A stretch of DNA of 64,000 nt, from positions 2,544,001 through 2,608,000 of the forward strand of contig JASTWF010000033.1 of the NCBI GenBank assembly GCA_030390025.1. Reading direction: 5' to 3'. Shown in pieces: positions 3,865 to 59,406 of the stretch (its first letter is position 1; each line of letters starts with the position of its first letter). Below the pieces are notes generated by a model. That model saw only the letters and a list, made by a program, of their open reading frames with translations. It was not told the origin of the DNA and made no database searches. Origin of the DNA: Squalus acanthias. Lineage: Eukaryota. The translations under genes and the position numbers were made by a program.

Positions 3865-4020
3865 CAGACAGACTAACCTCCCTATCTCTGTAATATCACC
3901 CAATCCAACAACCCTCGCTAAATCTGTAACGTTCTACAGCCCGACAACAATCTCTATCTCTGTTAACTCCTCCAGCCCCAACAACACTCCCTATTTCTGT
4001 AACCTCCTCCAGCCCTTCAA
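3865..4020. repeat. 33-bp minisatellite, right part
   Basis: Same unit as 840-1390. Confidence 0.8.
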
Positions 4021-4024: not shown

Positions 4025-4466
4025 TGTCCATAATAGGAAGATTCCCTTTAAAAGCGGTCCCTGATAGAAATACTCCCTCTTTAAAAGCGGACTTTGATGG
4101 AAAGACTCTCTCTTTAAAAGGGTCTCTGATCATGAGACGCTCTCTTTAAAAGGGATCCCTAATGGGTAGACTCTCTCTTCAAAATGTATCAATGATGCTG
4201 TGTCACCCTCTATAAAAGGGGTTGCTGATGGTGAGACTCTCTCTTTAAAAGGCGTCCCTAACGAGGAGACTGTCATTTTAAAAGGGGTACCTGATAGAAA
4301 GACTCCCTCATTATAAGGGGTCCCAGATGGTGAGACTCCCTCTTTAAAAGGGATCCCTGATGGTGAGACTCTCTCTTCAAAATGTATCCCTGATGCTGAA
4401 TCACCCTCTATAAAAGCGGTCGCTGATGGTGAGTCTCCTCTTTAAAAGGGATCCCTGATGGTGAGA
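4025..4466. repeat. 33-bp satellite (tttaaaaggggtccctgatggtgagactccctc)
   Basis: Tandem units, same family as 12363-13435 and 19904-21955. Confidence 0.9.
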
Positions 4467-4467: not shown

Positions 4468-5742
4468 GGTGAAGGAATAAGCCATATTCAGAAATATACT
4501 CCATTCTATGAAAGAATTCTGGCCTTTGTACCATGACAAGCTGGGCTTGAAAATCTAAAAACCTAACAATGGAGAAGCTGTAAACTGCATACTGGCTATT
4601 GAGGTAAGATAAGTTGTTTACACTGAATCAATAACCTTATTGAAACAAGAGGTTGGAAGTTCCTGAAGTCTGAAGCTTTCGAAAGAACACAATGGTACAC
4701 CCTGATAAGCTGTCCCAAATTAACTTTGGAAAGAAACACAGACAAATAAGAAACCAATGCCACCGTAAAAATGACATCAAATGAAACACAGGAGACACGA
4801 TTTTGTGTTGCAACCAGCTGAGGTAACTAAGAAGGCAATGGTGTCCCCGGTTGCGGTGTTTTTAATTTACATGTCGTAAAAAGACACAAACAAAAGACCT
4901 TGGTAAGAATGACATCAAATAGATGCATCTGCTGTCACACCGTTTTTATGATAAGCTTCGAACACCTAAAGGTAGAGGCACGGTTCTTAATGCTACCAGC
5001 TGAACTGACTGTAGAAGAGCAGGGATCAGCAGAAAAATGACTAGAGATAATTAAAGGACATCAGCAGAAAACTTCAAAGGAAATACCACTGCAAAAGGGA
5101 ATAAAAATTGAACTTTCAAATGGGATGATAGATTCGCTGTAATGGGGCAAAGCGATTCTCGGCTTCAAAGGCAAGCTCTGTAAGTCTACAACTCTTTGTA
5201 TCTCGGGGATCAAGGTACTACACTGTTTTTGATTTTGGTGGATATCCTGGAATAAGACTAAGAAATGTAAAAATGTAACGAAGTTAACATTTGAGAATAA
5301 GGACCTCTGATAATAGAATTGTAAGATTTCTGTTTTTGGAACTGTTAATGTTGCGTTTGAATCACCAATTCTAAATTACATGTCGGTCTTTAATATATCT
5401 ATATATTTTTAGAATTGTCTCACATAATACTTCTGTATCAAACTCGCAAACTCAATCTCTATATGCTCTTTGGTGAGGAGTTGCAGAATTCTGAGTGCGT
5501 TTTCCGCACCTCATAATATCTGGAACGTTACAGTCTAGCTAAACTTATTAAAAGTGCTTTCTGGAGGTCGGTAACATCTTCAGGTTCCTTCTTTCCTTTA
5601 GGGAGAGATAGTCCGCACCTTTAGATCCAAATACGCGTCTTTAGCATTCGGCTACCTCAAACTTTAGTTGAAAGTGAACGGCTGGGGAATACGCCAGATC
5701 GGGGCAGCCCTAAAGGGGCTAGGACAAGAAATGATCCCTTCA
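4468..5742 (+). mobile_element. 5' LTR (~1.27 kb) of an endogenous foamy-like retrovirus
   Basis: Homologous along its length to the inverted solo LTR at 13436-19903 (which begins TGTGAAGG); ends ...ccttCA 2 nt before the PBS; ATTAAA at 5547, GGTGAG donor-like motif at 5472. Confidence 0.85.
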
Positions 5743-5744
5743 GT

Positions 5745-5757
5745 TGGCGCCCAACGT
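5745..5757 (+). promoter_or_regulatory. Primer-binding site, tRNA-Lys1,2 type
   Basis: TGGCGCCCAACGT matches the first 13 nt of the foamy virus Lys1,2 PBS (TGGCGCCCAACGTGGGGC). Confidence 0.9.
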
Positions 5758-6005
5758 TTGTGTTAACGAGTTAATATAGAACCTATACTTATATTTATAT
5801 CTACATTCATCTTGTAGATTTTTAAGTATAGAAGGAATGTTTTACTGACAGTGGTAGTAAGACCCAGATTTAAGTCTCTAGAGACGACAAGTCCCTGATC
5901 AGGCCTTGTTGAACTTAAATCAGAACTCCCTCAATATACCATTGAGGTCTAGAAATTTCTTATAAAGTTCAAATTAAACCCTAACCGAGGTTAGGTCTTG
6001 ACGAA

Positions 6006-7550
6006 ATGGCAAACCCTGTCGGAATTGGCCAAGTTTTTTTATTAGGAAATTCAAACAATTGCTTTATTAGGGGAAATAATCCTATCCCTGTACCTCCACA
6101 GAAAAAGTGATCATTTTTGAAATAGAATGCTTTGATGCCGATGGAGCCGTTAGAACTCATGGCACTATTGATGTTGATCCCCAGAACCAGGGGTACAACA
6201 TACCCAGTGGGATAATCAAACACATACTCCAAATCCACTGAATTCCTTAATGATAAGGTGCACACCCGCACAATTGGGAGCCTAATTTACGGTGCCCAAC
6301 AAGGTGGTGGCAACCATGGACGAATAATAGGATTCGGAGCAGCCTGTGCTCCTGGGGGCCATGGATTCCGGTTAAGGTGGAAAGCTCCTGATGAAATAAA
6401 TAACCAGTATCTTCGAGAAAACTATAGAGAGCTTAAAATCCATTATAATCAATGCCGACAGGCACTAGCTCAATCTTATCTAAATGCTGGAGGCGCAATG
6501 ATTACTGGTCCAGAAAGCCAATCCCAGCAATCACATATTGCGCCCCTATTTCAAGTAAACCTGAGCTCTATCTACACAATGTGTGGTAGCCCGGGAAACA
6601 CCAGCCAGGAAAAAAAACTGCTGGATTCTAACTAACCTTGATAAATTAGAAACCTGTTGTCAAGATTGGAATGCCCAACACCTGAGACAACTACTGCAAA
6701 TGATACTAAGTTCAGACTCAGTTACCCCATTAAACCAGTGTAACAACTGGGTTCAAATATATGCCTATGTTCTCACGGCAACTCAGGGAGGGCATGTACT
6801 GGGATCCATCAAGGAAATACTCACTAATACAGCCACAGCTAAAGGGCTGGTAGCTGCCTACAATTAGGCAAAGTAATTACACAGCATAACTGGGACAATC
6901 AATACCAAAATACAGCCCACAAACTTGACTGTGATGGTGCTCTAAACGATTATCGAGATAACCAACAAAGATGGTATAATGTCAATCGCATTATCCAATT
7001 AAATCATGACCTATTAGGTCTACCCGAAACTAAACCTATAATGAGATCAGAAACCAGGGATAAAAACACCGAAGAAGGTACATTTGGTACTCAGAAACAA
7101 GGACTGTGTAGACCCAAGTCTAAAGTCCACCCCGCCCAGACACAACATCGTGGCTCGGGACCCCCATGAGGCTATTCCAGAAGTTTTACACCTCCAACTC
7201 GCCCACAATACGAGTGAGATTTCTCCCCAGAAAGATGGAATAGAAGAGGGGCTAGACCTCGAAAGGAAAGTGGACTCCCTATGGGGACAGCTTTTACTCT
7301 GGCCAAATCTATCAGGGAGCCCTGGGGGGCTACCGGGAAATCCGAAATGGGGATCAAAAAGATTCCCAGCAGAACCAACGTCCACCCCAACAGGAGGATC
7401 GTCAAGATAATAAATGGTCCAACAAACCCCCTCAGGGACCTGGAAAACATGATACCCCCAAGAGGGAGGAACAAAAATCAGTTAAAATAATTAAAGATAA
7501 AGCAGCAAATGAAACTGAGGATCCTGAGGATGAAGCATCCCAGGATTGAA
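6006..7550 (+). pseudogene. gag: Decayed gag of the foamy-like ERV
   Basis: Lies between PBS and protease; fragmented ORFs 6258-6635, 6583-6867, 7084-7490; no CCHC zinc knuckle seen, as in spumaviruses; boundaries approximate. Confidence 0.6.
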
Positions 7551-9357
7551 GGCCTGGCACCAGCCACGGGCCCTTGAATTCCCCTATGCCCTGGTAACCT
7601 TGCCCACAAACATACAATTGAAGGCCTTGTTTGATACGGGAGCTGATCACACTGTAATAGATCCTGCAATTATAAAAACTAAGTGAACAGATTTGGGGAG
7701 CCCAATTTGTAAAAGACCATTCGGGGGATTCACACAAGACAAAACCAAAATAATGAATTTTACAAAATACCTATTACTATATATGGAATCATGGTGACCA
7801 TAGATGTAGGACTGGTACCACAAATGGCCTGTTCCCTCATTATAGGACAACGAGACATGAAACATTACCTTAAAATCTCAACCAGACCTGTAGAAGCATC
7901 CACGGACCAGGATGACATGGAAAAAACATGTTCCGACACATCTTGATCGAACTTGCCTAGAGGGGGGAGGCAAAGACCTCCGAGAGCAACTCATTAATAG
8001 ATAATACCCTTATCTACAACGCCATCCAAATCAATGTGTCAAGATACACATCAAACCCCACCCACTTGATGATGGCTGGCGCAAACCTAAAAAACAGTGG
8101 CCTATTCAAGACCACAAAGGAAAAATAGATCTCCTAACAACGCTCAAAGAACTAAAAGAACAAGGTGTCTTAATCAAAATGGCATCTAGAACTAATTCAC
8201 CATTGTTGGGTGTTGCTAAACCAGATGGGAGGTGGAGATTAGTGGTCGATTATACAGCCTTAAATAAGTTAACGGCCCCACATACTGCACAACAGCAAAA
8301 TTCCACAGCCCTTCTCTCTGGAATCACGAGGGGAAAATATAAATCTTGTATTGATCGAGCAATCGGTTTCTGGTCACATCCAATACAAAAAGCTGATTGT
8401 CCAAAAATAGCGATGACTGGACCCGATGACCATCAGTATTGCTGGACCAGATTGCCCCAGGGATTTCAATACAGCCCCGTTCTCTTTTCAGCCCACATCA
8501 TTGACCTTTTAAAATACCTACCTAACGTCAAATCTTATGTGGACGATATATATCTGTCACATGACATTCTCCAAGAACACTTGCAGCCATTGATTCTGTT
8601 TTATCCAGACTTAGAACTGCTGGGTACTTAATCAACATAAAAAATATTCAACTAGTTAGGGAAGAGGTAGATTTTCTGGGCCTGCGAATAGCGGGAAACG
8701 GTAGAGGATTAACTCAACCCTATAAGGAAAAATTAGTCACCATTGAAAATCCTAAAACAATGAAAATTCGGCAAAGTAGTTCAGGACTTCTGAATTTTGC
8801 TCAATCCTTTACGCCAACCTTTTCCGAGCTCTCAGCACCCCTGTATGCTAGAGTGGGCGAAGCAGCAAAAGGACCATTCATATTTTCACCAGATGATTAC
8901 TCAAAATTATGCCGAGAGGTACAAAAAGCCATGGACCTGGAACAGAGGGACTTCGAATTTCCCCTCAATATTCATCTCAGGTCATCACCTAAAGTGACAG
9001 TTGCAGTTTTCTATAATGAAAAGAGCATAGTGCCCATTCAGTTCCATTCTTAGAACGTTTCCAATGTTGAAAGGGTCATGACTATGGTAGTCCAATGACT
9101 CATCAAGGCACGAACCCTTCAAGGGAAAGACCCCATTACCATCTGGACTGAGATTCCCGATTTAAGATCAGTATTGAGGATGGTTTCTGATGAAAGAAGA
9201 GCCATCCAGCTCCGATATGATAAATGGGGATCGTTCTTGAATGATCCTACACTCATTTTTAAATTCCTCTCCCCGGAAATGGACTTAGAGCATCTCCCCA
9301 TCATGGACGGTGATGATACGGAAGAGGGAATCAAACAAAAATCTATGAGACCTCTTG
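7550..9357 (+). pseudogene. pol: Decayed pro-pol (protease, RT, connection) of the foamy-like ERV; truncated before RNase H/IN/env
   Basis: LFDTGADHT at ~7627; KPDGRWRLVVDY..LNK, QYCWTRLPQGF, YVDDIYLSHD, RYDKWGSFLNDP parallel prototype foamy virus Pol motifs; stops and frameshifts. Confidence 0.9.
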
Positions 9358-9380
9358 GAGACACCCTCTTTAAAAGGGGT

Positions 9381-9537
9381 CAGTGTCAATAACTTATCTT
9401 AACTCAATAGCCTGTATGCTGTTTATAGCTTTAGATTGTTGAGGCTTTCAGAATTCCAAACATAGTTTGTCATGTTTCAATAAGGCCAGAATTATTTCGT
9501 AGAATTATGTATTTTTCTAAATATGGCGTATTCCTTC
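9381..9537 (-). mobile_element. Inverted fragment of the foamy-like LTR 5' (U3) end
   Basis: Highly similar to 19744-19900; continues at 12348 after the Penelope insertion. Confidence 0.85.
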
Positions 9538-9586
9538 TTGAGAGGTCGCACAACACCAGGTTATAGTCCAACAGTTTTATTTGAAA

Positions 9587-9625
9587 TCACAAGCTTTCGG
9601 AGCTATCGCTCCTTCCTCAGGTGAA
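9587..9625 (-). ncRNA. Minimal type I hammerhead ribozyme motif (Penelope 3' end)
   Basis: tcacCTGAGGA-ggagc(gata)gctcc-GAAAgcttgtga on minus strand. Confidence 0.75.
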
Positions 9626-9957
9626 GTAAATTGGATACAGAATCGCCAGAGCATATATAGATGGAAAAAAAAACATGTGTACTTTACAATTGCAGACCAA
9701 TAAATTAAATCATCCTGACTATCTGCCGAGGTGTGATAAAGTTAATTAAGTCAGCCAGGAAGGTACCACATCAAAAGACATAGCAAGATACAACTGAGAC
9801 AATGAGGTGTAGTCGCAGGGGTTCTAACGTGTCAAAAGCTGCCGTCTGTATGTAAAACGAAAAGCTTTAAAAAAAAATTACTTTTTTACTGGGAAAATTT
9901 TTACTTTTTTACTGGGAATCACATCTGTGAACAAGCTAACGACGACTCGAGTCCGGA

Positions 9958-11718
9958 TCACGTCATGTATCGTGACATAAACCCAAGATCCCGATTGAGA
10001 CCGTCTTCATGAGTGCGGAACTTGGCTATCAGTTTCTGCTCGATGATTTTGCGTTGTCGTGTGTTTCTAAGGTTGCCTTGGAGAACGCTTACCCGCAGAT
10101 CCGAGGCTGAATGTCCTTGACTGCTGAAGTGTTCCCCGACTGGGAGGTAACAATCCTGCCTGGCGATTGTTGCGCGGTGCTCGTTCATACGTTGTCTCAG
10201 TGTCTGCATGGTCTCGCCGATGTACCATGCCGCGGTGCATTCTTTCCTGCAACGTATGAGGTAGACAACGTTGGCCGAGTCACATGAGTATGTACCATGT
10301 ACCTGGTGGGTAGTGTCCTCACGTGTGATGGTGGTATCTGTGTTGATGATCTGGCATGTCTTGCAGAGTTTGCCATGGCAGGGTTGTGTGGTGTCGTGGT
10401 CGCTGTTATCCTGAAAGCTGGGTAATTTGCTGCGAACGATGGTACTTCTGAGGTTAAGCGGCTGTTTGAAGGCAAGTAGTGGAGGCGTGGGGATGGCCTT
10501 AGCGAGGTGTTTGTCGTCATCGATGACATGTTGAAGGCTGCGAAGAACATGTCGTAGTTTCTCCGCTCCGGGGAAGTACTGGACGACGTAGGGTACCCTG
10601 TTGGTTGTGTCCCGTGTTTGCCTTCTGAGGAGGTCTATGCGATTTTTCGCTGTGGCCCGTCGGAACTGTCGATCGATGAGTCGAGCGTCATATCCCGTTC
10701 TTACGAGGGCGTTTTTCAGCGTCCGTAGGTGTCCATCGCGTTCCTCCTCGTCTGAGCAGATCCTGTGTATTCGCAGGGCTTGTCCATAGGGGATGGCTTC
10801 TTTAACATGGTTAGGGTGGAAGCTGGAGAAGTGGAGCATCGTGAGGTTGTCCGTGGGCTTGCGGTAGAGTGAAGTGCTGAGGTGTCCGTCTTTGATGGAG
10901 ATTCGTGTGTCCAGGAATGAGACCGATTCTGAGGAGTAGTCCATGGTGAGTTTGATGGTGGGATGGAACTTGTTTATGTTATCGTGTAGTCTTTTCAGTG
11001 ATCCTTCGCCATGGGTCCAAAGGAAGAAAATGTCGTCGATGTATCTGGTGTACAGCGTTGGCTGGAGGTCCTGTGCAGCGAAGAAGTCTTGCTCGAACTT
11101 GTGCATGAAGATGTTGGCGTATTGGGGTGCGAATTTGGTCCCCATGGCTGTTCCGTGTGTTTGGGTAAAAAAATGGTTGTCGAAGGTGAAGACATTGTGG
11201 TCAAGGATGAAGCGGATGAGTTGTAGGATGGCGTCTGGAGATTGGCTGTTGTTGATGTTGAGTACTGAGGCTGTTGCAGCGATGCCGTCATCGTGGGGGA
11301 TACTGGTGTAGAGTGCCGATACGTCCATCGTGGCAAGGAGTGTTCCTGGTTCAACTGGTCCGTGGGTGCTGAGTTTCTGTAAGAAGTCTGTAGTGTCGCG
11401 ACAGAAGCTGGGGGTTCCCTGTACGATGGGTTTCAGAATGCCCTCGACGTATCCAGAGAGGTTCTCACACAGGGTTCCATTGCCTGATACGATAGGACGT
11501 CCGGGTGTGTTGGCTTTGTGTATCTTTGGGAGGCAGTAGAAGTCTCCCACGCGGGGAGTACGTGGGATGAGAGCGCGTAGGATGTTTTGAAGGTCTGGAT
11601 CGAAGGTCTTGATCAGTCTATTGAGTTGGCGGGTGTGTTCTTTGGTCGGATCTGCGGGTAGCTGTCTGTAGTGTTCCTGGTTGTCCAGTTGTCGGTATGC
11701 TTCTTTACAATAGTCCGT
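9958..11718 (-). CDS. Penelope RT-GIY-YIG endonuclease ORF, 5'-truncated but uninterrupted
   Basis: LPKIHK..PGRPIVS, DVSALYTSIP, GTAMG, RYIDD, NVVYLIRC...WYIGET; the ATG at 11742 lies in the inverted arm and is a junction artefact. Confidence 0.9.
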   Translation of the reverse strand, partial: TDYCKEAYRQLDNQEHYRQLPADPTKEHTRQLNRLIKTFDPDLQNILRALIPRTPRVGDFYCLPKIHKANTPGRPIVSGNGTLCENLSGYVEGILKPIVQGTPSFCRDTTDFLQKLSTHGPVEPGTLLATMDVSALYTSIPHDDGIAATASVLNINNSQSPDAILQLIRFILDHNVFTFDNHFFTQTHGTAMGTKFAPQYANIFMHKFEQDFFAAQDLQPTLYTRYIDDIFFLWTHGEGSLKRLHDNINKFHPTIKLTMDYSSESVSFLDTRISIKDGHLSTSLYRKPTDNLTMLHFSSFHPNHVKEAIPYGQALRIHRICSDEEERDGHLRTLKNALVRTGYDARLIDRQFRRATAKNRIDLLRRQTRDTTNRVPYVVQYFPGAEKLRHVLRSLQHVIDDDKHLAKAIPTPPLLAFKQPLNLRSTIVRSKLPSFQDNSDHDTTQPCHGKLCKTCQIINTDTTITREDTTHQVHGTYSCDSANVVYLIRCRKECTAAWYIGETMQTLRQRMNEHRATIARQDCYLPVGEHFSSQGHSASDLRVSVLQGNLRNTRQRKIIEQKLIAKFRTHEDGLNRDLGFMSRYMT

Positions 11719-12227
11719 GAACACTTCAGCAGTCAAGGACATTCAGCCTCGGATCTGCGGGTAAGCGTTCTCCAAGGCAACCTTAGAAACACACGACAAC
11801 GCAAAATCATCGAGCAGAAACTGATAGCCAAGTTCCGCACTCATGAAGACGGTCTCAATCGGGATCTTGGGTTTATGTCACGATACATGACGTGATCCGG
11901 ACTCGAGTCGTCGTTAGCTTGTTCACAGATGTGATTCCCAGTAAAAAAGTAAAAATTTTCCCAGTAAAAAAGTAATTTTTTTTTAAAGCTTTTCGTTTTA
12001 CATACAGACGGCAGCTTTTGACACGTTAGAACCCCTGCGACTACACCTCATTGTCTCAGTTGTATCTTGCTATGTCTTTTGATGTGGTACCTTCCTGGCT
12101 GACTTAATTAACTTTATCACACCTCGGCAGATAGTCAGGATGATTTAATTTATTGGTCTGCAATTGTAAAGTACACATGTTTTTTTTTCCATCTATATAT
12201 GCTCTGGCGATTCTGTATCCAATTTAC

Positions 12228-12266
12228 TTCACCTGAGGAAGGAGCGATAGCTCCGAAAGCTTGTGA
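12228..12266 (+). ncRNA. Minimal type I hammerhead ribozyme motif (Penelope 3' end)
   Basis: CTGAGGA core, stem II ggagc/gctcc, GAAA, palindromic AAGCTT, stem I tcac/gtga. Confidence 0.75.
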
Positions 12267-12362
12267 TTTGAAATAAAACTGTTGGACTATAACCTGGTGT
12301 TGTGCGACCTCTCAATTTTGTCCACCCCAGTCCAACACCGGCATCTCCGTATTCCTTCTTGA

Positions 12363-13435
12363 CAGGGATACTTCCTCTTTAAAGGTGCCACTGATGCTGA
12401 GACTCACTCTTTAAAAGGGGTTCCTGGTGGAGAGACTATCTCTGAAAAAGTGAACCCTTATGGGGAGACTCCCTCTTTAAAATGTGTCCCTGATGCTGAA
12501 ACTCACTCTTTAAAAGGGATCCCCGATGGTGGGACTGCCTCTTTAAAAGCGGTCCCTAAGGGAGAGATTCTCTCATTAAAAGTGGTCCCTGATAGAAAGA
12601 TGCCCTCTTTAAAATTGTTTCCGGATGTTGAAAAAGGTGTCCCTGAGTGTGCGACTCTCTCTTTAAACGGGATCCCAGATGGTAATACTCACTCTTTAAA
12701 AGGAATTCCTGATGGTGAGACTCACTCTTTAAAATGTCTCCCTGATAGAAAGATTCCCTCTTTAAAAGGGTCACTGAATTTGAGACTCTCTCTTCAAAAG
12801 TGGCCACTGATGGTGAGACGCCCTCTTTAAAAGGAAACCCTGACAGTGAGACTCTCTTTAAATGATGTCCCTGACGATGAGACACCCTCTTTAAAAGGGG
12901 TACCTGGTGCAGAGACTTTCTCTTTGAAAGTGATCCCTGATGGGGAGACTCCCTCTTTAAAAGGTGTCCCTGATGCTGAAACACCCTCTTTAAAAGGGGT
13001 CCCTGATGGTGAGACACCCTCTCTAAAAGTGCTACCTGATGGTGAGACTGTCTCTTTAAAATGTGTCCCTGATGCTGATATACACTCCTTAATAGGTGTT
13101 CTTGATGGTGAGACACCCTCTTTAAAAGTGATACCTGATGGTGAGACTCTCTCTTTAAAATGGGTCCCAGATGCTGAAAAACCCTCTTAAAACGGAGTCC
13201 CTGATGGTGAGACTCCCTCTGTAAAAGGGGTCCCTAATGCTGAGATTTCTCTTTACAAGTTGCCAATGATGGTGAGACCCTCTCTTTAATAGGAATCCCT
13301 GAAACTGAAAAACCCTCATTAAAAGGGGTCCCTGATGGTGAGACTCCAGATTTAAAAGGGGACCCTGATGGTGAGACTCCCTCTTTAAAAGGGGTCCCTA
13401 GTGGAGAGAGTCTCTCATTGAAAGGGATGCCTAAC
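12363..13435. repeat. 33-bp ttaaaagggg satellite
   Basis: Tandem 33-bp units. Confidence 0.9.
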
Positions 13436-14025
13436 TGAAAGGTTAATTACTAGTCCTAGCCCCTGTCGGGCTACCCTGGATCAGGCGTATTCCCCAGACG
13501 TACACTTTCAACTAAAGTTTGAGGTAGCCGAATCCAAAAGACGCTTCATTCGGTCGAAAGGTCCAGATTATCTCTCCCTTAACGAAAGGAACAACCTGAA
13601 GAGTTTACAGTCCTCCAGTTAGCACTTTTACTAAGTTTAGCTGGAATGTAAATTTCCGGATATTACGTGGGTCCGGATAACTCCCCCAGAATTCTGCAAC
13701 TCCTCACCAAAGAGCCTACAGAGATTGAGTTTGCGAGTTTGATCAAGAAGTACTATGTGAGACAATTCTAAAAATACATTGATTTATTAAAGAACCGACA
13801 TGTAATTACAGTAGGTGTTTCAATCGCAACATTGACAGTTCCAAAAACAGAAGGGTACAATTCTATTATCAGAAATCCTTATTCTCAATACTTAACTTCG
13901 CTACTTTTTTACAATTTTCGTCTTTATTCCAGGATATCCACCAAAATCAAATACAGTACAATACCTTGATCCCTGAGGTACAAAACGTTGTAGACTAACG
14001 GAGCCTGCCAATGAAGCCTGAGAAT
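13436..14025 (-). mobile_element. Foamy-like solo LTR, U5/R side (split by CR1)
   Basis: Reverse complement of ~5155-5742; AGTAAA on minus at 13627-13632. Confidence 0.9.
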
Positions 14026-16480
14026 GGGAAGGGGGGAGAGCAGGAGAGCAATAGTTATTGGGGACTCAATAGTCAGAGGGACAGATAGGAGGTTCTGTGG
14101 CAGCAAAAGAGACTCACGGATGGTATGTTGCCTCCCGGGTGCCAGGGTCCGTGACGTCTCGGACCGTGTTTTCAGAATCCTCAAAGGGGAGGGGGAACAA
14201 TCACAAGTCGTGGAACACATCGGTACCAACGACATAGGTAGGAGAAGGGACGGGGATTTAAAACAGGAATTTAGGGAGCTAGGTTGGAAGCTGAGAGCCA
14301 GTACAAACCATGTTGTAATTTCTGGTTTGTTGCCGGTGCCACGTGCTAGCGAGTTGAGGAACAGGGAGAGAGTGCAGATAAACACGTGGCTGCAGGGATG
14401 GTGTAGCGGGGAAGGTTTCAGTTATGTGGATAATTGGAGCACATTCTGGGGAAGTTGGGACCTGTACAAACAGGACGGTTTGCACCTGAACCAGAGGGGC
14501 ACCAATATCCTGGGAGGGAAATTTGCTACGGCTCTTCGGGGGGGTTTAAACTAATTTGTCAGTGGGATGGGAAAAAGGGCTGTAGTCCAGGAGCCAGCAG
14601 TGAGTGTAGGGAGGTACTGAGGAGGGTATCAAGGTCGCAGGAATGTACCGGCAGACAGGAAGATGGCTTGAAGTGTTTCTACTTCAATGCAAGGAGCATC
14701 CGGAATAAGGTAGGAGAACTTGGAGCGTGGATTGGTACTTGGGACTACGATGTGGTGGCCATTACGGAGACATGGTTAGAACAGGGACAGGAATGGTTGT
14801 TGGAAGTTCTGGGGTATAGATGTTTCAGTAAGAGTAGGGAAGTTGGTAAGAAAGGTGGAGGAGTAGCATTGTTAATCAAGGATAGTTTAACAGCGGCAGA
14901 AAGGCAGTTCGAGGGGGATCTGCCGTCTGAGGTAATATGGGCTGAAGTTAGAAATAGGAAAGGAGCGGTCACGTTGTTAGGAGTTTTCTACAGGCCCCCA
15001 AATAGTAATAGAGATGTGGAGGAAGAAATTGCAAAGCAGATTATGAATAGGTGTGGAGGTCACAGAGTAGTTGTCATGGGTGACTTCAACTTTCCAAATA
15101 TTGATTGGAACCTTTATAGGTCAAACAGTTCGGATGGGATAGTTTTGCATAGTGTGTGCAGGAGGGTTTCCTGACACAATATGTGGATAGGCCGACAAGA
15201 GCTGGGGCCACGTTGGATTTGGTACTGGGTAATGAACCGGGCCAAGTGTTTGATTTGTATGTGGGAGAGCACTTTGGAGAAAGTGACCACAATTCGGTAA
15301 CTTTCACTATTGCAATGGAGAGGGATAGGGCCATACGGCAGGGCAGGGTTTATAATTGGGGGAGGGGTAATTATGATGCGATTAGGCAAGAATTAGGGAG
15401 TATAAGATGGGAACAGAAACTATCAGGGAAAGGTACAAACGAAAAGTGGAGCTTTTTCATGGAGCAATTACTGCGTGTCCTTGATAGGTATGTCCCTGTC
15501 AGGCAGGGAGGAAATGGCCGAGTGAGAGAACCATGGTTCACAAAAGAGGTTGAATGTCTAGTCAAGAGGAAAAAGGAAGCGTATGTAAGGATGAGAAAAC
15601 AAGGTTCAGTTGGGTCGATTGAGGGGTACAAGGTAGCAAGGAATGAGCTAAAAAAAGAGCTTAGGAGAGCTAGGAGGGGGCATGAGAAGTCCTTGGCGGA
15701 TCGGATCAAGAAAAACCCCAAGGCCTTTTACTCTTATGTGATAAATAAAAGAATGACCAGGGTGAGTGTAGGGCCGGTCAAGGACAGTAGTGGGAACTTG
15801 TGCATGGAGTCAGAAGAAATAGGAGAGGTGATGAATGAATACTTTTCGTCAGTGTTCACCGAGGAGAGGGGCCATGTTCTTGAGGATGAGAGTGTGATAA
15901 AGGTGGATAGGCTGGAGGTGGTAGATGTTCTGAGGGAAGATGTTTTAGCAATTTTGAAGAACCTGAGGGTCGATAAGTCCCCTGGGCCAGATGGGATATA
16001 TCCTAGGATTCTTTGGGAGGCAAGGGAGGAGATTGCAGAGCCTCTGGCTTTGATCTTTGGGTCCTCACTGTCCACGGGAATGGTGCCAGAGGACTGGAGA
16101 GTGGCGAATGTTGTTCCTCTCTTCAAGAAAGGAAATAGGAATGACTCTGGTAATTATAGGCCGGTTAGTCTTACTTCGGTGGTTGGTAAGATAATGGAAA
16201 ATGTCCTGAGGGATAGGGTTTATGATCATTTGGAAAGGGGCAACTTAATCCGGGATAGTCAACACGGATTCGTGAAGGGTAAGTCTTGCCTAACAAATTT
16301 GATTGAATTCTTTGAGGAGGTAACTAAGTGTGTAGATGAAGGTAGAGCAGTTGATGTCGTATACATGGATTTTAGTAAGGCGTTTGATAAGGTTCCCCAT
16401 GGTCGGCTCATGAAGAAAGTAAGGAGTTGTGGGATAGAGGCAAATTTGGCCGATTGGATAAGTAACTGGCTATCTCATAG

Positions 16481-18322
16481 TATCAGGCAACGGAACCCTG
16501 TGTGAGAACCTCTCTGGGTACGTCGAGGGCATCCTGAAACCCATCGTACAGGGAACCCCCAGCTTCTGTCGCGACACTACAGACTTCTTGCAGAAACTCA
16601 GCACCCATGGACCAGTTGAACCAGGAACACTCCTCGTCACAATGGACGTATCGGCACTCTACACCAATATCCCCCACAATGACGGCATCGCTGCGACAGC
16701 CTCAGTACTCAACACCAACAACAGCCAATCTCCGGACGCCATCTTACAACTCATCCGCTTCATCCTTGACCACAATGTCTTCACCTTCGACAACCATTTT
16801 TTCACCCAAACACACGGAACAGCCATGGGGACCAAATTCGCACCCCAATACGCCAACATCTTCATGCACAAGTTCGAGCAAGACTTCTTCGCTGCACAGG
16901 ACCTCCAACCAACGCTGTACACCACATACATCGACGACATCTTCTTCCTTTGGACCCACGGCGAAGGATCACTGAAAGGACTACACGATAGCATCAACAG
17001 GTTCCATCCCACCATCAAACTCACCATGGACTACTCCTCAGAATCGGTTTCATTCTTGGACACACGAATCTCCATCAAAGATGGACGCCTCAGCACTTCA
17101 CTCTACCGCAAGCCCACGGACAACCTCACGATGCTCCACTTCTCCAGCTTCCACCCTAACCACGTTAAAGAAGCCATCCCCTATGGACAAGCCCTGCGAA
17201 TACACAGGATCTGCTCAGACGAGGAGGAACGCGATGGACACCTACGAACACTGAAAGACGCTCTCGTAAGAACGGGATATGACGCTCGACTCGTCGATCG
17301 ACAGTTCCGACGGGCCACAGCGAAAAACCGCATAGACCTCCTCAGAAGATGAACACGGGACACAACCAACAGAGTACCCTACGTCGTCCAGTACTTCCCC
17401 GGAGCGGAAAAACTACGCCATGTTCTTCGCAGCCTTCAACATGTCATCGATGACGACGAACACCTTGCTAAGGCCATCCCCACGCCTCCACTACTCGCCT
17501 TCAAGCAGCCGCCTAACCTCAAAAGTACCATCGTTCGCAGCAGATTACCCATCTTTCAGGAGAACAGCAACCAAGACGCCACACAACCCTGCCACGGCAA
17601 CCTCTGCAAGACATGCCAAATCATGGACACAGATACCATCATTACACGTGAGGACACTACCCACCAGGTACACGGTACATACTCATGTGACTCGGCCAAC
17701 GTTGTCTACCTGATACGTTGCAGTAAAGCATGCTCCAGAGCATGGTACATCGGCGAGACCATGCAGACACTGAGACAACGTATGAACGGACACCGCGCAA
17801 CAATCGCCAGGCAGGAGGGTTGCCTCCCAGTCGGGGAACACTTCAGCAGCCAGGGGCATTCAGCCTCGGATCTGCGGGTAAGCGTTCGCCAAGGCGGCCT
17901 TCGAGATACACGACAGCGCAAAATCATAGAGCAGAAACTGATAGCCAAGTTCCGCTCTCATGAGGATGGCCTCAATCGCGATATCGGGTTCATGTCACGA
18001 TACAGAACGTGACTTGACATCATGGCCGGTCTTCCCAGGTGTTTTTTTTTTTTAAAAGGCTAACACAAGAACACAAATTGACAGGATATGCAGCCAGCAG
18101 GTGGTTTGACACGTTGGACCCCTTGGGACACATCTCATTGTCTTGGCTGTGCTCTTTGTTGCAGGGAATAATGTGAATAGATTTTGTCTGGGTTTAAATT
18201 GTGAATTCTGGGAGATTCTCTCATTGCTAACTTACCTGACGAAGGAGCGAACTGCTTCGAAAGCTTGTAAAATTAAATAAATCTGTTGGACTATAACCTG
18301 GTGTTGTGCGACTTCTCATTTT
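16481..18322 (+). mobile_element. 5'-truncated Penelope-like element inserted in CR1
   Basis: RT/GIY-YIG ORF pieces 16588-17352 and 17623-18012 with a premature TGA at 17350; 10-bp TSD tatctcatag at 16471 and 18323. Confidence 0.95.
18232..18270 (+). ncRNA. Minimal hammerhead ribozyme motif
   Basis: ttacCTGACGA-ggagc(gaact)gcttc-GAAAgcttgtaa; stem I ttac/gtaa. Confidence 0.75.
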
Positions 18323-19391
18323 TATCTCATAGAAGGCAGAGGGTGGTGGTGGATGGAACATTTTCGGTCTGGAGACCAGTTACCAGCGGTGTGCCACAGG
18401 GGTCGGTGCTGGGTCCTCTGCTGTTTGTGATTTTTTATCAATGACTTGGAGGAGGGGACTGAAGGGTGGATCAGTAAATTTGCTGATGACACCAAGATTG
18501 GTGGAGCAGTGGATGAGGTGGAGGGCTGTTGTCGGCTGCAAAGAGACATTGATAGAATGCAGAGCTGGGCCGAAAAATGGCAGATGGAATTTAACCCTGA
18601 TAAGTGCGAGGTGATTCATTTTGGTAGGGCAAATTTGAATAAGGATTACAGGGTCAACGGCAGGGTTCTGAGGAACGTGGAGGAGCAGAGGGATCTGGGG
18701 GTTCATATCCACAGATCTCTGAAGGTTGCCACTCAAGTGGACAGAGCAGTAAAGAAGGCCTATGGTGTGTTGGCGTTTATTAACAGAGGGTTTGAGTTTA
18801 AGAACCGTGAGGTTATGCTGCAACTGTACAGGACCTTGGTGAGACCACATTTGGAATATTGTGTGCAGTTCTGGTCACCTCACTATAGGAAGGACGTGGA
18901 AGCATTGGAAAGAGTGCAAAGGAGATTTACCAGGATGCTGCCTGGTTTGGGGGGGAGGTCTTATGAGGAATGATTGAGGGAGTTGGGGCTTTTCTCTTTA
19001 GAGCGGAGGAGGATGAGAGGCGACTTAATAGAGGTTTATAAGATGATGAGGGGGATAGATAGAGTGGATGTTCAGAGACTATTTCCTCGGGTAGAGGCAG
19101 CTGTTACAAGGGGGCATAACTATAAGGTGTATGGGGGGAGATATAGAAGGGATGTCCGAGGTAGATTCTTTACTCAGAGAGTGGTTGGGGTGTGGAATGG
19201 ACTGCCTGCTGTGATAGTGGAGTCGGACACTTTAGGAACTTTCAAGCGGTTATTGGATAAGCACATGGAGCACACCAGAGTGATAGGGAGTGTGATAGCT
19301 TGATCTTGGTCTCGGACAATGCTCGGCACAACATCGAGGGCCGAAGGGCCTGTACTGTGCTGTACTGTTCTATGTATCTATGTTTCTATGT

Positions 19392-19903
19392 AATCGCTTT
19401 GACTGTTTACAGCGAAACTATCATCCCATTTGAAAGCTCAATATTTAAATACTTTCTCAGTGGTATTTCCTTTGAACTTTTCTGATGATCTAAGCTAATT
19501 ATATGTAGTCATTTTTCTGCTGACCACTGCTATTCTTACAGTCAGTTGAGAAGTTAGCAATGCAAACTCCTGACTCCTGTGTGTCATTTGATGTCATTTT
19601 TATGAAGGCATATGTTTCTTAATTTTATGTGTTTCCTTCCGAAATGTAATTTAGAAAATCTTGACAGGGTGTACCATTACGTTCTTTCCAAAGCTACAGA
19701 CTTCAGGAGCCTCCAACCTCCTGTTTCAATAAGGTTATAGATTCAGTGTCAACAACTTATCTTAACTCAATAGCCTGTTTGCTGTTTACAGCTTTAGATT
19801 GTTGAGGCTTCCAGATTTCCATACACAGTCTGTCATGTTTTAATAAGGCCAGAATTATTTCATAGAATTGTGTATTTTTCTGAATATGGCTTATTCCTTC
19901 ACA
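19392..19903 (-). mobile_element. Foamy-like solo LTR, U3 side
   Basis: Homologous in reverse complement to 4468-5155; starts TGTGAAGG on minus; flanks taac (13432) and tgac (19904) form an imperfect 4-bp TSD. Confidence 0.9.
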
Positions 19904-21955
19904 TGACAGGGATACTCCCTCTTTAAAATGGGCCACTGATGGTGAGGCTGTCTCTTTAAACGGGAACCCTGATGATGAAATCCCTCTTTAAAATGTGTTC
20001 TTAACGGTGAGACCCCTCTTTAAATGTAGTCCCCGATGGCGAGACTCTCTCTTTAACAGGGGTCACTGATGGGAAGATTCCCTCTTTAAAATGGGTCCCT
20101 GATGGTGGGACTGCCACTTTAAAAGGTGTCCCTGATGGTGTGTCCCTCCTTAATAGGAGTCCCCGATGCTGAAAAACCCTCTTTAAAAGGAATCCCTGAT
20201 GGTGAGACTCCCTCTTTAAAAGGGGTCCCTAATAGCGAGTCTATCTCTTTAAAAGGGGTCCCTGATGGTGAGACACCCTCTTTAAAACGGGTTTCCCTGA
20301 TGTTGAGACACCCTCTTTAAAAGGGGTCCCTGATGGAGAGACTGTCTCTTTAAATGCGGTTCCCGATGGAGAGACTATCTCTTTAAAAGCAGTCCCTGAT
20401 GCTGAAACTCCCTCTTTAAAAGGGGTCCCTGATGATGGGACTGCCTCTTTAAAAGATGTCCCCAATGGGGAGACACTCTCTTTAAAAGCGATCCCTGATA
20501 GAAAGACTCCCTCTTTAAAAGCGATCCCTGTTGCTGAAACTCCCTCTTTAAAAGCGATCCCTGTTGCTGAAACTCCCTCTTTAAAAGCGATCCCTGTTGC
20601 TGAAACTCCCTCTTTAAAAGCGATCCCTGATGCTGAAACTCCCTCTTTAAAGGAGGTCACTGAGCGTGCGGCTCTCGCTTTAAAACGGATCCCAAATGGA
20701 AATACTCACTCTTTAAAATGGATTCCTGATGGTGAGACGCACTCTTTAACAGGGGTCCCTGACAGAAAGACTCCCTCTTTAAAAGGGTCTCTGACGGTAA
20801 GATTTTCTCTTTAAAAGCGATCCCTGATTGTGAGACTCTCTCTTTAAAAGGGCCCATGGTGGAGAGATTCTCTCATTAAAATGGGTCCCTAACGGGAATC
20901 ATCCATCTTTAAAAGGGGCCCCTGATGGTGTAACTCTCACTTTAAAAGGGGTCCCTCATGGGGAGACTCCCTCTTTCAAGGGGATCGCTGATGGTGAGAC
21001 TTCCGCTTTAAAAGGGGTCCCTAATGTTGAGACTCCCTCTTTAATAGGAGTCCCTGATGCTTAAACAACCTCTTTAAGAGGGGTCCCTGATACTGAGACT
21101 GTTTCTTTAAAAGATGTCCCTAATGGGAGAATCTCCCTTTAAAAGTGTCCCTGATAGAAAGACGCTCTCTTTAAAAGGGGTCCCTGATAGTGAGATTCCC
21201 TCTTTAAAAGGTGTCCCTGATGGTGATGCTTACTCTTTAAAGGGCTGCCTGATGGTGAGACACCCTCTTTAAAATGGGTCCCTGATGGTGAGACTCCATT
21301 TTTAAAAGGTGTACCTAATAGGAAGATTGTTTTTAAATGGGGTCAATGATAGAAAGACTCCCTCTTTAAAAGGGGACCTTGATAGAAAATCTCTTTTTAA
21401 AATGGGACCCCAAGGTTGAGACTCCCTCTTTAAAAGCTCTCTGACGGCGAGACTCTCTCTTTAAAATGGATCCCTTTTGGGGAGACTCCCGCTTTAAAAG
21501 GGCTCCCTGATGGTAAGACTCTCTTTAAAAGGGCTCCCTGATAGAAAGTCTCCCTTTTTAAATGTGATTCCTCATGTTGAGATACACTCTTGAAAACAGG
21601 AACCTGATGGTGAGACGCCCTCTTTAAAAGGCGTCCCTGATAGAAAGACTCCCTCTTTAAAATGGTCACTGACGGTGAGACTCTCTCTTTAAAAGTGATC
21701 ACTGATTGTGAGACTCGCTTTAAAAGGTATCCCTGATGTTGAGACTTCCTCTTTCAAAGGGGCCCCTGATGTAAGACTCCGTCTTCACCATGGGTTCCGT
21801 GATAGAAAGAATCCCTCTTTAAAAGGGATCTCTGATGCTGGGACTCACTTTTTAAAGGGATCACTGATGGTGAGACTCACTCTTTCAAAGGTCTCCTTGA
21901 TAGAAAGTCTCCCTCTTTAAAAGGATGTACTTCGGTGAGAATCTCTTTAAAAGTG
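19904..21955. repeat. 33-bp ttaaaagggg satellite
   Basis: Tandem 33-bp units, locally homogenised at 20511-20650. Confidence 0.95.
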
Positions 21956-28617: not shown

Positions 28618-29519
28618 TTATTTTATAATCTTAGAAAGTACAGTGAAGGGATATTTCACCCCATTCTTCAGCTCCTCTCTGAACTTACTCTGGGTCACGG
28701 CATAAATAAAAGTGTTTGTGCAGCAACTCAGGAGCTGGAGCATAAACCCAATTTCTCGTACAATATTGGGGAGCTCAGCAATAGGGAACTCGCTCACCAG
28801 AACAATTCTAGTATACATCGTATTGAGCACGAGCACAGCCCATAGAAGGATAAAATTCCCCGAGATCACAAAAATTACAGTAATTGATTTTCTTCTGCTT
28901 TTTGTCTCTGGATCGCTGGGACTCTCCCCACTGACCCGGTCCCGAAGTTTCTTCCGAATTCTGATGGTCACTAAAATGTGTCTGACAGTTAAAACATTGA
29001 GCATCAGAATCAGAATAAATGGTACACACGGGGTGAAAATGTAATGTAGAAATTCAATTGCTGTCCATACTGGTGAATACATAACACTGTAGGTCATAGC
29101 GCAGAACCAGGGAACTCTCATTAGCATATAGTTGCCTGTAACCATAAAGTACCAGAAAATGTTCTTCACACAGAACAACACAGTCATTGTTCCAATAACC
29201 ACCGCCGCCGATTTCTCGGTGCAATATTTGTTTTTTAGCTTCTGGCAACAAATGGCCACAAATCGATCAAAGGTGAAAGAGACGGTGAACCAGACAGAAC
29301 AGTCTGTGGCTGCATAAAGAAGGACGGCGTGAATGTTACACACGGGAATGTCGAACAGAAAGTGAAACCTCGTATAATAAACAATGGGGATGCGCCTCAT
29401 TATCAGATCGAGGATAACGACCAGTAGATCCGCCGCTGCCATGGCCACCAGGTACCGAGTGACACATTTGGAGAGGCCACACTTTCCCCGAGACAGGATC
29501 ACAATCGTCACTATGTTAA
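28618..29519 (-). CDS. GPR139/GPR142-like class A orphan GPCR, exon 2
   Basis: YLVAMAAADLL (TM2), FTFDRFVAIC (TM3), SCCTNTFIY (TM7); pyrimidine tract plus ttacAG acceptor at 29520-29521; phase matches exon 1. Confidence 0.9.
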
Positions 29520-29877
29520 CTGTAAGGAAGGGGTGGGAAAGGGAAATTACACATCAGGATGGGAGCAGAAATATCAGTGTCGTGGATCAATGGATGTAAT
29601 TTACTGAAAGCTCACAACATCCCGTGATGGAATCCGATGTCACAGAACTTCATGTTAGAGCTAAGACTTCAAGTCAACTGTCAGCAAGGTCTGATCAAAT
29701 TGGATAAATAAACATGAAAATAACACGGTTATATTTATTCAGAAATGTCCAACAACAGAATGTGGTTTGCCCTAATGAACAAAGAGTAAACACACTGACT
29801 GGTGCCAACAAAACCTGATGGTGCTGACAGAAGGTCCCACGGTCAAATCTGGGCCTAGTCAGTTACAACTGGAATCA

Positions 29878-43170: not shown

Positions 43171-43176
43171 ACCGAA

Positions 43177-43207
<31 letters not shown>

Positions 43208-43243
43208 CTCTAAAGGTTCCTGGTTCGATCCCGGGTTTCGGCA
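43171..43243 (+). pseudogene. tRNA-Phe(GAA) variant/pseudogene
   Basis: Canonical Phe body; A1:C72 and anticodon-stem mismatches. Confidence 0.8.
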
Positions 43244-43513
43244 GGTTTTAGTTACTTTGTGTCTCCTTCACTATAAGAGGAACGATTCAGGAAAGATTTT
43301 CCACTTCTGAGCTCGCCCATTCACCCAACCTGTCCAAGTCACTCTGTAGCCTCCTTGCATCCTCCTCATTGTTCACACTGCCTCCCAATTCAGTGACACT
43401 CTGCCTAGTTGAAAATACGAACAGTTGGCAATGTTTAAGCGATGTGGGGTTTTCAATGTTTGTGCAAGACAATCCCCCAGCTTGGGTTTGAACCTATCCA
43501 TTGTGCGCTTTGT

Positions 43514-43587
43514 GGCCGGTTTGCTCAGTTGGCGAGAGCGTGGTGTTAATAACGACAAGGTCACGGGTTCGATCCCCGTACGAGCCA
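43514..43587 (+). pseudogene. tRNA-Ile(AAT) pseudogene
   Basis: Several stem mismatches. Confidence 0.8.
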
Positions 43588-43790
43588 TCAGAAAGTTTTC
43601 ATAATTTTACGCTTTTCTCGCACATTTCAAACAGAAACTTTATAATGAAACCAATCCACGCAGACTCTCACGGGGGAATTATTTGGAATAACATCCATTG
43701 CACCTTTGCCACCGAGGCGGAGAGACGTTTATTTGTGTTTCTGGGTTTGCTGATGAACGTTGAACTGCCGGCCTGTTCCCGTTAATGGTC

Positions 43791-50034: not shown

Positions 50035-50278
50035 GCATCAATGAAATGTAGGCCCGGCCCCGAGAGAGGCAACATCCAGAGCACAGAAGGAAATCGATTT
50101 CAAGTGCATGCCTACCCGCACTTGCTGCCGTGGTTTCGCGAACACGTATTTTGTGTTCTCAACTAAAAAATGTCATTTTGTACGAACAGTTTGCCTGGCG
50201 CGAAAGTATCTGAATTTCAAAGGAGCACGCAGGAAAGACTGCCTTGCTGTGCTTTCTGGCAGGTAGCTTGATGTAGCT

Positions 50279-50350
50279 TCCCTGGTGATCTAGTGGTTAG
50301 GATTCGGCCTTTTCACCACCGCGGACCGGGTTCGATTCCCGCTCAGAGAA
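50279..50350 (+). pseudogene. tRNA-Glu(TTC) pseudogene
   Basis: Multiple stem mismatches. Confidence 0.8.
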
Positions 50351-51200: not shown

Positions 51201-51273
51201 GCCGAAATAGCTCAGGTGGGAGAGCGTTAGGTTGAAAATCTAAAGCTCCGTGTTTCGATCCCGGGTTTGGGCA
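51201..51273 (+). pseudogene. tRNA-Phe(GAA) pseudogene
   Basis: T-arm and acceptor mismatches. Confidence 0.8.
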
Positions 51274-51337
51274 GGTGTTAGTTACTTTTGTCTCCTTCAC
51301 TGTAAGAGGAACGATTCAGGAGAGCTTTTCCACTTCT

Positions 51338-51438
51338 GAGCCTGCGTCTACCAAAGAAATGGGCCCGAACCACGTCAGGTCCGGCTCCAGCCGCCCGCTG
51401 CGGGTTCGAATCCAGTCGGCGTCCTGCCGGCTCTTTTT
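51338..51438 (+). ncRNA. Candidate Pol III tRNA-like ncRNA, copy 1
   Basis: GAGCC/GGCTC terminal stem, GGTTCGAATCC B box, T5 terminator. Confidence 0.4.
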
Positions 51439-53312: not shown

Positions 53313-53377
53313 GGTTTTAGTTACTTTTTGTCTCCTTCACTATAAGAGGAACGATTCAGGAGAGATTTTCCACTTCT

Positions 53378-59400: not shown

Positions 59401-59406
59401 GCCTAA

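Follow-up and report, generated by a model that had tools for sequence, protein, structure and literature searches.

What kind of retrovirus left the element at positions 4470..9357 of this stretch of Squalus acanthias DNA, and how much of its RNA control can still be read there? The element is a dead foamy provirus, lying on the plus strand and deleted at its 3' side, within the window, which here means the whole stretch of 64,000 nucleotides that was analysed. Its reverse transcriptase (RT) is placed with those of mammalian and salamander foamy viruses. Virus production from this copy is impossible. The provirus has no detectable integrase, env or 3' LTR, and a search across the whole 64-kb window gave no similarity to env, Tas or Bel; those parts, and with them the internal promoter and the central PPT, are deleted in the provirus. 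Endogenous foamy viruses of cartilaginous fish have already been published, so an element of this kind is in itself expected. A GPR139-like ORF places the host no more narrowly than Chordata. The first-pass annotation held that the lineage may be undescribed, which is doubtful given that, going by its title, a publication on such viruses exists. The interest of the element is the cis-architecture kept in its LTR and leader.

The RT, with the connection or tether region, occupies 8005..9357 on the plus strand in two frames, broken near 8590. The motifs KPDGRWR, YCWTRLPQGF and YVDDIYLSHD, which had been read from the sequence at first pass, all fall inside the stop-free frame 8005-8631. At 9357 pol ends, about 19 codons past the last residue aligned to PFV (576) and short of PFV 597, where the RNase H motif lies. 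Identity over the RT is 48-50% to primate foamy viruses (48% to PFV) and 45% to FFV; to salamander, teleost, Callorhinchus and S. torazame elements it is at most 40%. In a PDB search the foamy RTs score 156-170 bits, against at most 56 for FIV, HIV and Ty3, and a search of 1.84 billion representatives has feline foamy virus Pol as its best match. No protein relative of near the full length of the RT piece was found. An alignment scan gave 27 loci at about 26-31% identity across the RT, with three short segments at 40-50%; it was set aside as evidence.

The phylogeny gives the same placement. In trees built without named ERV-L, snakehead, loki or coelacanth rows, the RT forms a clade with mammalian foamy viruses, Pleurodeles and P0005 at a support of 99/97 (two data sets) and 96/88 in a third tree. 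The RT phylogeny had been proposed earlier as a check, and its outcome agrees with the foamy reading: the teleost-type foamy-like elements (FLERVs) form a separate clade in all three trees, and the S. torazame protein P0023 lies inside it. An origin from Ty3/Gypsy fails, with Gypsy-like rows splitting off at 100/100 and the Ty3 RT scoring 50-53 bits against 170. Approximately unbiased (AU) tests reject a grouping with seven non-foamy retroviral rows (p 9e-5).

It is improbable that the element belongs within teleost-type or Callorhinchus-type FLERVs, or within some other class III lineage, and not in the tetrapod foamy clade. With the RT core alone, a teleost-type grouping survives the AU test (p 0.139), and a sister relation to the Callorhinchus element is a borderline case (p 0.053). 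The end branch is also long (0.7-1.0), the protease motif is DTGA, and the missing named rows leave some room. But on the longer set of 444 columns a grouping with ten teleost-type rows is rejected (p 0.006), and the 99/97 support, the gap in RT identity and a foamy-type Gag all go the other way. Teleost FLERVs and CmiFLERV of the elephant shark (PMC5210030, PMC5512871; P0011, P0012, P0016, P0023) do resemble the element in having a foamy-like RT, often a Lys primer-binding site (PBS) and no Cys-His box, but teleost-type rows carry YIDD where the element has YVDD. The salamander FLERVs (Pleurodeles P0009, P0010, P0175) share the well-supported clade and Gag_FV_central with it, at an RT identity of only 39-40%. 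The PBS of NviFLERV is of the tRNA-Asn type (PMC5512871), unlike the Lys1,2 type of the element. Lokiretroviruses are marked by an RT outside the foamy viruses and an F-like Env (PMC7947760).

The rest of the coding region is less well kept. The protease region (7540..7960, plus strand) is broken. The DTGA noted at first pass is present at 7633; it is not the mammalian foamy motif, which is DSGA or DSQA. The Spuma_A9PTase model finds no match in the region, and a natural protease piece of 48 amino acids meets only generic retroviral protease models, below their cut-off. Upstream, gag covers 6006..7549 on the plus strand, about 514 codons with several stops and frame breaks. It was described as lacking a zinc knuckle, and indeed a Cys-His box of the form CX2CX4HX4C is absent from the gag region in all three frames. 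A central piece resembles Pfam Gag_FV_central (E 2.5e-4; 21.1 bits, under the Pfam cut-off of 30 bits) and matches a Pleurodeles Gag at E 1e-6. PDB searches with two Gag pieces gave no match. The C-terminal part survives in short broken pieces with 14-33% G+R, and a putative V-x|I-I-like site, a candidate for the p3 cleavage site, may lie near its end.

At the end of gag an ATG opens a stretch in the +1 frame (7509..7575, plus strand), which is a candidate start of pol. The stretch shares 41 nt with the end of gag; in all ten controls, which are the ten foamy genomes at loci L001-L010, the overlap is also +1 and measures 44-53 nt. In this copy a frame break divides the candidate start from the protease motif.

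The 5' LTR, LTR A, bears out the reported length of 1.27 kb: it measures 1,273 bp (4470..5742, plus strand), runs from TG to CA and has inverted hexamer ends. A minisatellite array with a 33-bp unit, found with TRF, precedes it at 4046..4466. The Lys1,2-type PBS of the earlier reading is also there, at 5745..5762 on the plus strand; its first 13 bases are exact, and 14/18 agree with the PBS of foamy locus L001. In the leader, a 10-nt palindrome (5875..5884, plus strand) is a candidate dimer-linkage signal, SII-like. Compared to the dimer-signal palindrome seen in 10/10 foamy controls, it differs by one compensatory pair. Chance produced such a palindrome in 12/10,000 shuffles, and it is the sole example of its form in the window. 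The predicted fold of the leader RNA is no better than that of shuffles (z -0.7).

A second copy, solo LTR B, lies further along on the minus strand, its 3' part (R/U5) at 13436..14025 and its 5' part (U3) at 19392..19901, the halves separated by a 5.4-kb CR1/Penelope insert. As the 3' LTR of the provirus it is ruled out; it is a separate minus-strand copy. LTR B is 83-84% identical to LTR A and misses about 175 nt. The K2P distance between the two is 0.15-0.18, which is unusable as an age because A and B are not the LTR pair of one provirus. There is no 4-bp target-site duplication at LTR B (at best 4/6 bases), and the provirus of LTR A has no 3' end.

At the deletion junction, where pol stops, a 33-bp satellite unit follows (9358..9381), and then LTR piece C (9380..9537, minus strand), a U3 start that is 92% identical to LTR B versus 81% to LTR A. 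Piece C and LTR B share an unusual junction 12-mer, which within 1-25,000 is present only at 12361 and 19905. Piece C is likely a local duplicate of the LTR B junction. The end of piece C is the insertion site of a Penelope-like element (9538..12348, minus strand), which has a target-site duplication of about 15 bp. LTR B is bordered by further 33-bp arrays, on its U5 side at 12370..13432 and on its U3 side at 19914..21924.

Every LTR end in the window thus adjoins 33-bp arrays, and one could think that the family targets this satellite at integration. That seems a remote prospect: the window holds only two independent insertions, in different phases and on different strands, and in sequencing run X3, where no contig crosses the satellite ends, 81 contigs exit the U5 end into dissimilar flanks (agreement 0.35). 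A likely history is that a multi-copy family left numerous solo LTRs, and that one plus-strand provirus and one minus-strand solo LTR inserted in the satellite. The provirus would then have lost everything from RNase H onward through a join to a satellite unit; the LTR B junction would have been duplicated, and the CR1 and Penelope insertions would have come later. Contigs of runs X1, X3 and X6 (three other run sets) do contain many related copies and cover all 30 bins, and the depth maximum in X1, X3 and X6 alike is the bin 5436-5601, which holds the donor and hexamer described next. From run X22 (organism I) came just 4 reads. Of the 20 run rows with matches, 17 were left out of the analysis; no RNA run was among those listed, which speaks neither for nor against transcription. 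Viral contigs gave no relatives through RT peptides or the U5 21-mer, nor did metagenome contigs through the U5 21-mer.

The signals in question lie near the end of the LTR. A TATA-like box is found at 5392..5398, a putative transcription start region with an initiator-like TCA at 5420..5425, a site like a major splice donor, TTG|GTGAG, at 5470..5480 and a poly(A)-signal-like ATTAAA at 5547..5552, all on the plus strand. The donor-like site is identical in LTR B and is the best U1 pairing within 520 nt before the PBS. The first-pass annotation had placed a GGTGAG about 75 nt before a hexamer in both LTR copies. This is borne out: GGTGAG is at 5472 and ATTAAA at 5547, and the solo LTR has an aligned GGTGAG together with AGTAAA. 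The likeness to the foamy R region that it drew from this arrangement gains from the spacing in foamy controls, as far as sequence can tell.

That spacing is close. From the TATA-like box to the GT of the donor it is 81 nt in LTR A and B alike; it is 79-85 nt in 8/10 controls, the pattern having missed the other 2. Both LTR copies and 9/10 controls have the donor as TTG|GT. The hexamer stands 198 nt before the PBS in LTR A, or 198-199 nt taking A and B together, versus 175-188 nt in the controls. The inferred start would put the donor at +51; for PFV it is stated as +53 (PMC5294762).

A rule combining the full geometry is satisfied by 8/10 controls and 1/5,000 shuffles, and in the window by 3/3,174 tiles, 2 of which are LTR A and LTR B, with the caveat that the rule was loosened after the window had been inspected (TATA pattern, and a hexamer range up to 205), so that these chance figures are optimistic. 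If any 7-nt A/T run is accepted as TATA, 9/3,174 window tiles pass. The rarity is limited to the full geometry; the donor and hexamer pair alone is frequent by chance, at 48-450 per 1,000 shuffles depending on looseness.

This bears on a second alternative, that donor, hexamer and palindrome arose by chance in an A+T-rich LTR, so that nothing follows about RNA control. The loose rules, passing 5-45% of shuffles, lend it some weight, as do the five GT sites in LTR A whose pairing with U1 reaches -6.6 kcal/mol or better and the lack of sequence homology to foamy LTRs. The R regions of LTR A and B have no nhmmer match to profiles of ten foamy TATA-to-donor or TATA-to-PBS segments, and a global comparison with a foamy LTR profile puts them only in the top 1-2%, without significant similarity. 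Yet the control-calibrated geometry is rare and selects both LTR ends, and of the ten best donor-like sites that have an equivalent in B, the one at 5472 alone is strong in both. Chance is a quite unlikely account. A 29-nt block round the donor, perfectly shared by A and B, was dropped as evidence since it is expected by chance (p 0.56).

A third alternative keeps the foamy virus but gives it another LTR layout. The hexamer at 5392 would be the true poly(A) signal, with cleavage at the CA at 5421-5424; GGTGAG would lie in U5, beyond the poly(A) site, and there would be no foamy-type switch in R. In copy B this site is a canonical AATAAA, and 24-26 nt after it come CA and a tract rich in U; the two copies agree fully over 5404-5426, and in neither is the downstream hexamer canonical. 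However, U5 would then be about 320 nt, versus about 150-165 in the controls, the sole TATA-like site upstream (5100) is not retained in B, and the 81-nt donor spacing, like the place of the second hexamer, becomes a coincidence. This layout is rather unlikely.

The preferred reading, with a probability of roughly 0.7, is that the ancestor of the provirus expressed its genes in the foamy way, with such a start, a poly(A) signal guarded by U1 and a spliced pol. RNA would start about 30 nt past the TATA-like box. U1, bound at the splice donor some 51 nt into R, would keep the 5' poly(A) signal in check. Pol would have an AUG of its own on a spliced mRNA, and the RNA may dimerise at the leader palindrome. 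The folding switch of PFV is not reproduced: with 13-200 nt of U3 added, predicted donor openness is not lowered, except in LTR A at 200 nt (0.31 to 0.19), with B unchanged.

The element can be set beside known systems. With mammalian foamy viruses (PFV/SFV, FFV, BFV, EFV; L001-L010, P0001, P0002) it shares an RT at 45-50% identity with YVDD, the Lys1,2 PBS, a long LTR, no Cys-His box, a donor-like site 5' of a poly(A)-like hexamer at similar spacing, a +1-frame ATG over the gag end and a leader palindrome with a CTAG core. It is unlike them in its protease motif, in having no A9 protease Pfam match, in its non-canonical hexamers, in the absence of LTR sequence similarity, in its leader of 261 nt (86-115 in the mammalian viruses) and in being dead, without RNase H, IN, env and tas/bel.

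The coelacanth endogenous foamy virus CoeEFV (PMC3386198), compared by eye, has a DTGA-type protease, similar RT motifs, N-terminal and central Gag parts collinear with those of the element, a CA-GT-PBS junction, a leader of more than 200 nt and donor-like sites between TATA box and AATAAA. By eye, too, its TATA box is 62 or 102 nt from a donor-like site, about 228 nt separate its hexamer from the PBS, and the palindrome in its leader is a different one. Given these differences, the close match of the element to mammals may be partly luck. The element may or may not be of one lineage with CFEFV, the cartilaginous-fish foamy virus whose description may already cover some of the motifs. CFEFV reportedly occurs in sharks and rays and retains canonical foamy motifs. 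By the title of its description (Wang, Chen, Cui 2023, J Virol 97:e0181622), it roots to the vertebrate foamy viruses, which fits the present RT tree.

The papers considered here on foamy ERVs of fish and amphibians (PMC5512871, PMC5210030, PMC6955096, PMC3386198) cover proteins, PBS and target duplications; the word 'splice' is absent from the main text of these four. Signals of the end repeat at a spacing near that of mammalian foamy viruses suggest that the unusual RNA control of this group is likely very old. A more far-reaching claim can be offered tentatively, at somewhat worse than even odds: a foamy virus of the shark lineage already had the whole foamy RNA programme, with a U1-guarded poly(A) signal in R, a donor near +51, a pol that is spliced separately and has its AUG in the +1 frame, and a compensated dimer palindrome with CTAG core, these signals being kept since before cartilaginous and bony vertebrates split. 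If the geometry is functional, foamy RNA control would go back to a deep branch within the foamy clade, and the many copies of this family would form a natural series for testing it.

The 5' LTR of the provirus (LTR A, plus strand) lies at 4470-5742. It is 1,273 bp long, runs from TG to CA and has inverted hexamer ends. Two bases further on is a PBS of the foamy Lys1,2 type, identical in its first 13 bases and in 14 of 18 overall; the PFV PBS is also quoted in PMC3386198. A leader of 261 nt extends to the gag ATG at 6006. The gag region (6006-7549, ~514 codons) is interrupted by stops and frame breaks, and a scan of all its frames found no Cys-His box. The DTGA motif of the protease lies at 7633, and RT occupies a frame free of stops at 8005-8631, then a different frame to ~9300. 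The 1.27-kb LTR, Lys1,2-type PBS, gag without zinc knuckle, and DTGA protease with RT claimed by the first-pass annotation are thus all present. The alignment to PFV Pol stops at residue 576, and the RNase H motif is residue 597. The element ends at 9357, at a 33-bp satellite unit. No integrase or 3' LTR of its own, and no env or Tas/Bel, was found within the window. This copy is dead.

The RT is 48% identical to that of PFV. Searched against PDB chains, it scores 156-170 bits with five foamy entries, and at most 56 with the next ones (FIV, Ty3, HIV). Among the matches listed from a search of 1.84 billion representatives, of which 20 of 150 were identified by name, the top one is feline foamy virus (FFV) Pol at 45%, followed by salamander, teleost, Callorhinchus and Scyliorhinus torazame elements at 35-40%.

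Three trees were made: one of the unbroken RT core with 65 rows (64 of 182 qualifying proteins, omitting near-duplicates), one of 444 columns with 36 hand-picked rows and an X at the frame break, and one of the RT core with 33 rows. Neither these nor the AU tests include named rows for ERV-L, snakehead, loki, coelacanth or the published cartilaginous fish endogenous foamy virus (CFEFV). In all three, the element forms one clade with the mammalian foamy viruses, Pleurodeles elements and the Logan protein P0005 (99/97, 99/97 and 96/88), and the branching order inside it is left open. A teleost-type clade, which includes the S. torazame protein, is separate in every tree. Joining the element to seven non-foamy retroviral rows gives an AU p of 9e-5, and joining it to Callorhinchus gives 0.053. 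For ten teleost-type rows, p is 0.006 on 444 columns versus 0.139 on the core. The foamy placement proposed earlier holds in its grouping with mammalian foamy viruses, and is less firm against a teleost-type grouping on the core.

One Gag piece gives a weak Gag_FV_central match (E 2.5e-4; 21 bits against a cut-off of 30) and matches a Pleurodeles Gag at E 1e-6. Judged by eye, the Gag pieces are collinear with the published coelacanth endogenous foamy virus (EFV) Gag.

Two Logan proteins deserve mention. P0005 (1,687 aa) has a Gag-like region and Pol in what is apparently a single open frame, with a DTGA protease, and is a weak sister to the window element (89/64). If real, it would be a foamy-clade virus with gag and pol fused. 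P0207 (1,156 aa) is an intact foamy Pol, 62% identical to PFV over the searched region, and in the trees takes a place outside the eight mammalian foamy viruses that are named.

Under loose criteria, a donor upstream of a poly(A)-like hexamer turns up in 48-450 of 1,000 shuffles. The identical block around the donor in LTR A and in LTR B, a separate minus-strand solo LTR, is also unremarkable (p 0.56). Because such pairings are frequent and the block is ordinary, ten exogenous mammalian foamy virus genomes were used as controls. There, TATA to donor GT measures 79-85 nt (8/10 detected by pattern), the donor reads TTG/GTAAG in 9/10, and AATAAA lies 175-188 nt before the PBS. In both window LTRs a TATA-like box is 81 nt upstream of TTG/GTGAG, which is the strongest U1-pairing site in the 520 nt before the PBS. 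The hexamer, ATTAAA in A and AGTAAA in B, is 198 and 199 nt ahead of the PBS position. A search rule derived from this geometry accepts eight of the ten controls, 1 of 5,000 shuffles and 3 of 3,174 window tiles, two of which are the ends of A and B; these chance rates are optimistic, since its limits were relaxed so as to include the window. If any A/T run counts as TATA, nine tiles pass.

From an initiator-like TCA 30 nt past the TATA-like box, the last exon base would be +51 in both copies. The PFV donor is put at +53 in PMC5294762, and its poly(A) signal at +168-173 in PMC3694450, versus +126 for the hexamer here. In the coelacanth EFV, inspected by eye, the TATA box is followed by donor-like sites after 62 and 102 nt, AATAAA precedes the PBS by ~228 nt, and the leader palindrome is another one; the order of signals is alike, the spacings are not. 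Profile search and global alignment of window LTRs against foamy LTRs gave no significant similarity, and the predicted RNA folds of the LTR show no counterpart of the PFV switch in donor openness.

The poly(A) signal can instead be taken to be the box at 5392. In LTR B this box reads AATAAA and is followed, at a suitable spacing, by CA and a U-rich tract, but U5 would then be ~320 nt, and an upstream promoter would be required whose sole candidate is missing from B. Near the TATA-like box, TAGA(A)TTGT (5410-5418, 18 nt beyond it in both LTR copies) resembles a motif that directly precedes the start site of the foamy controls; it recurs at 5314 and several other places, and is only a lead.

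Two more features that parallel the controls lie outside the LTR. A +1-frame ATG begins a 41-nt overlap with the end of gag; all ten controls have one in that frame, overlapping by 44-53 nt. In the window copy a frame break separates this ATG from the protease. A 10-nt leader palindrome is one compensatory pair away from a palindrome in the leaders of all ten controls. It occurs in 12 of 10,000 shuffles and once in the window. PMC5035957 describes an SII palindrome, located between PBS and gag, as essential in PFV; its text on this gives no sequence letters, and judged by position the control palindrome would be SII.

LTR B is interrupted by a 5.4-kb CR1/Penelope insert, is 83-84% identical to A and is ~175 nt shorter. 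At 9380-9537 is a further LTR piece, C. It matches B at 92% and meets the satellite at B's unusual junction, so it would most simply be a local duplicate. Because 33-bp arrays adjoin every LTR end in the window, the family might target this satellite at integration. That is unlikely: two independent insertions differ in phase, and contigs of X3, one of the sequencing runs, show many dissimilar flanks. Contigs from three runs of three organisms cover all 30 bins of the element at 80-100% identity, with 7,847, 13,851 and 11,601 matching records and LTR depth far above pol depth; a fourth organism's run has 4 matching reads. The pattern is in keeping with a family of many copies that abounds in solo LTRs, though summed depth does not equal copy number.

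The window holds other repeats and genes. Minisatellites of 36 and 33 bp lie at 840-1392, 3878-4015, 4046-4466, 12370-13432 and 19914-21924; their units are multiples of three, and some frames are predicted to read Ser/Thr/Pro-rich. Two Penelope-like GIY-YIG elements (9538-12348 and 16477-18323, 94% alike) each sit in or at a foamy LTR copy, the first with an intact 594-aa frame and inverted arms of 604 bp (100%). An apparently young Ty3/Gypsy element (45525-50034), with an uninterrupted gag-pol frame of 1,315 aa between 215-bp direct repeats that agree at 99%, is directly upstream of a tRNA array at 50000-60600. The array consists of tandem ~2.05-kb units with tRNA-Glu (anticodon TTC or CTC, differing between units), tRNA-Phe and tRNA-Ile genes; one more Phe/Ile pair, at 43171-43589, precedes the Gypsy element. 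There are also a vault RNA match over the Rfam cut-off (62595-62685, minus strand) and an intact GPR139-like receptor exon of 311 aa (28621-29553, minus strand). The GPR139-like gene places the host among the chordates; that it is a cartilaginous fish is probable and would agree with the repeat landscapes of sharks.

Foamy-like ERVs have already been described in elephant shark, teleosts, amphibians and coelacanth, according to PMC5512871, PMC5210030 and PMC3386198. In the literature searched, neither a dimer palindrome nor the arrangement of donor and poly(A) signal in the R region is described for foamy ERVs of non-mammals. Positions are what is observed here; by analogy with mammalian foamy viruses, the signals would have foamy-type RNA functions. 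We put the probability that this lineage had the full ancestral programme, with a U1-guarded poly(A) site in R, a donor near +51, spliced pol from a +1-frame AUG and a CTAG-core dimer palindrome, at about 0.4. The element itself is expected; the testable addition is the non-coding architecture that it has kept.
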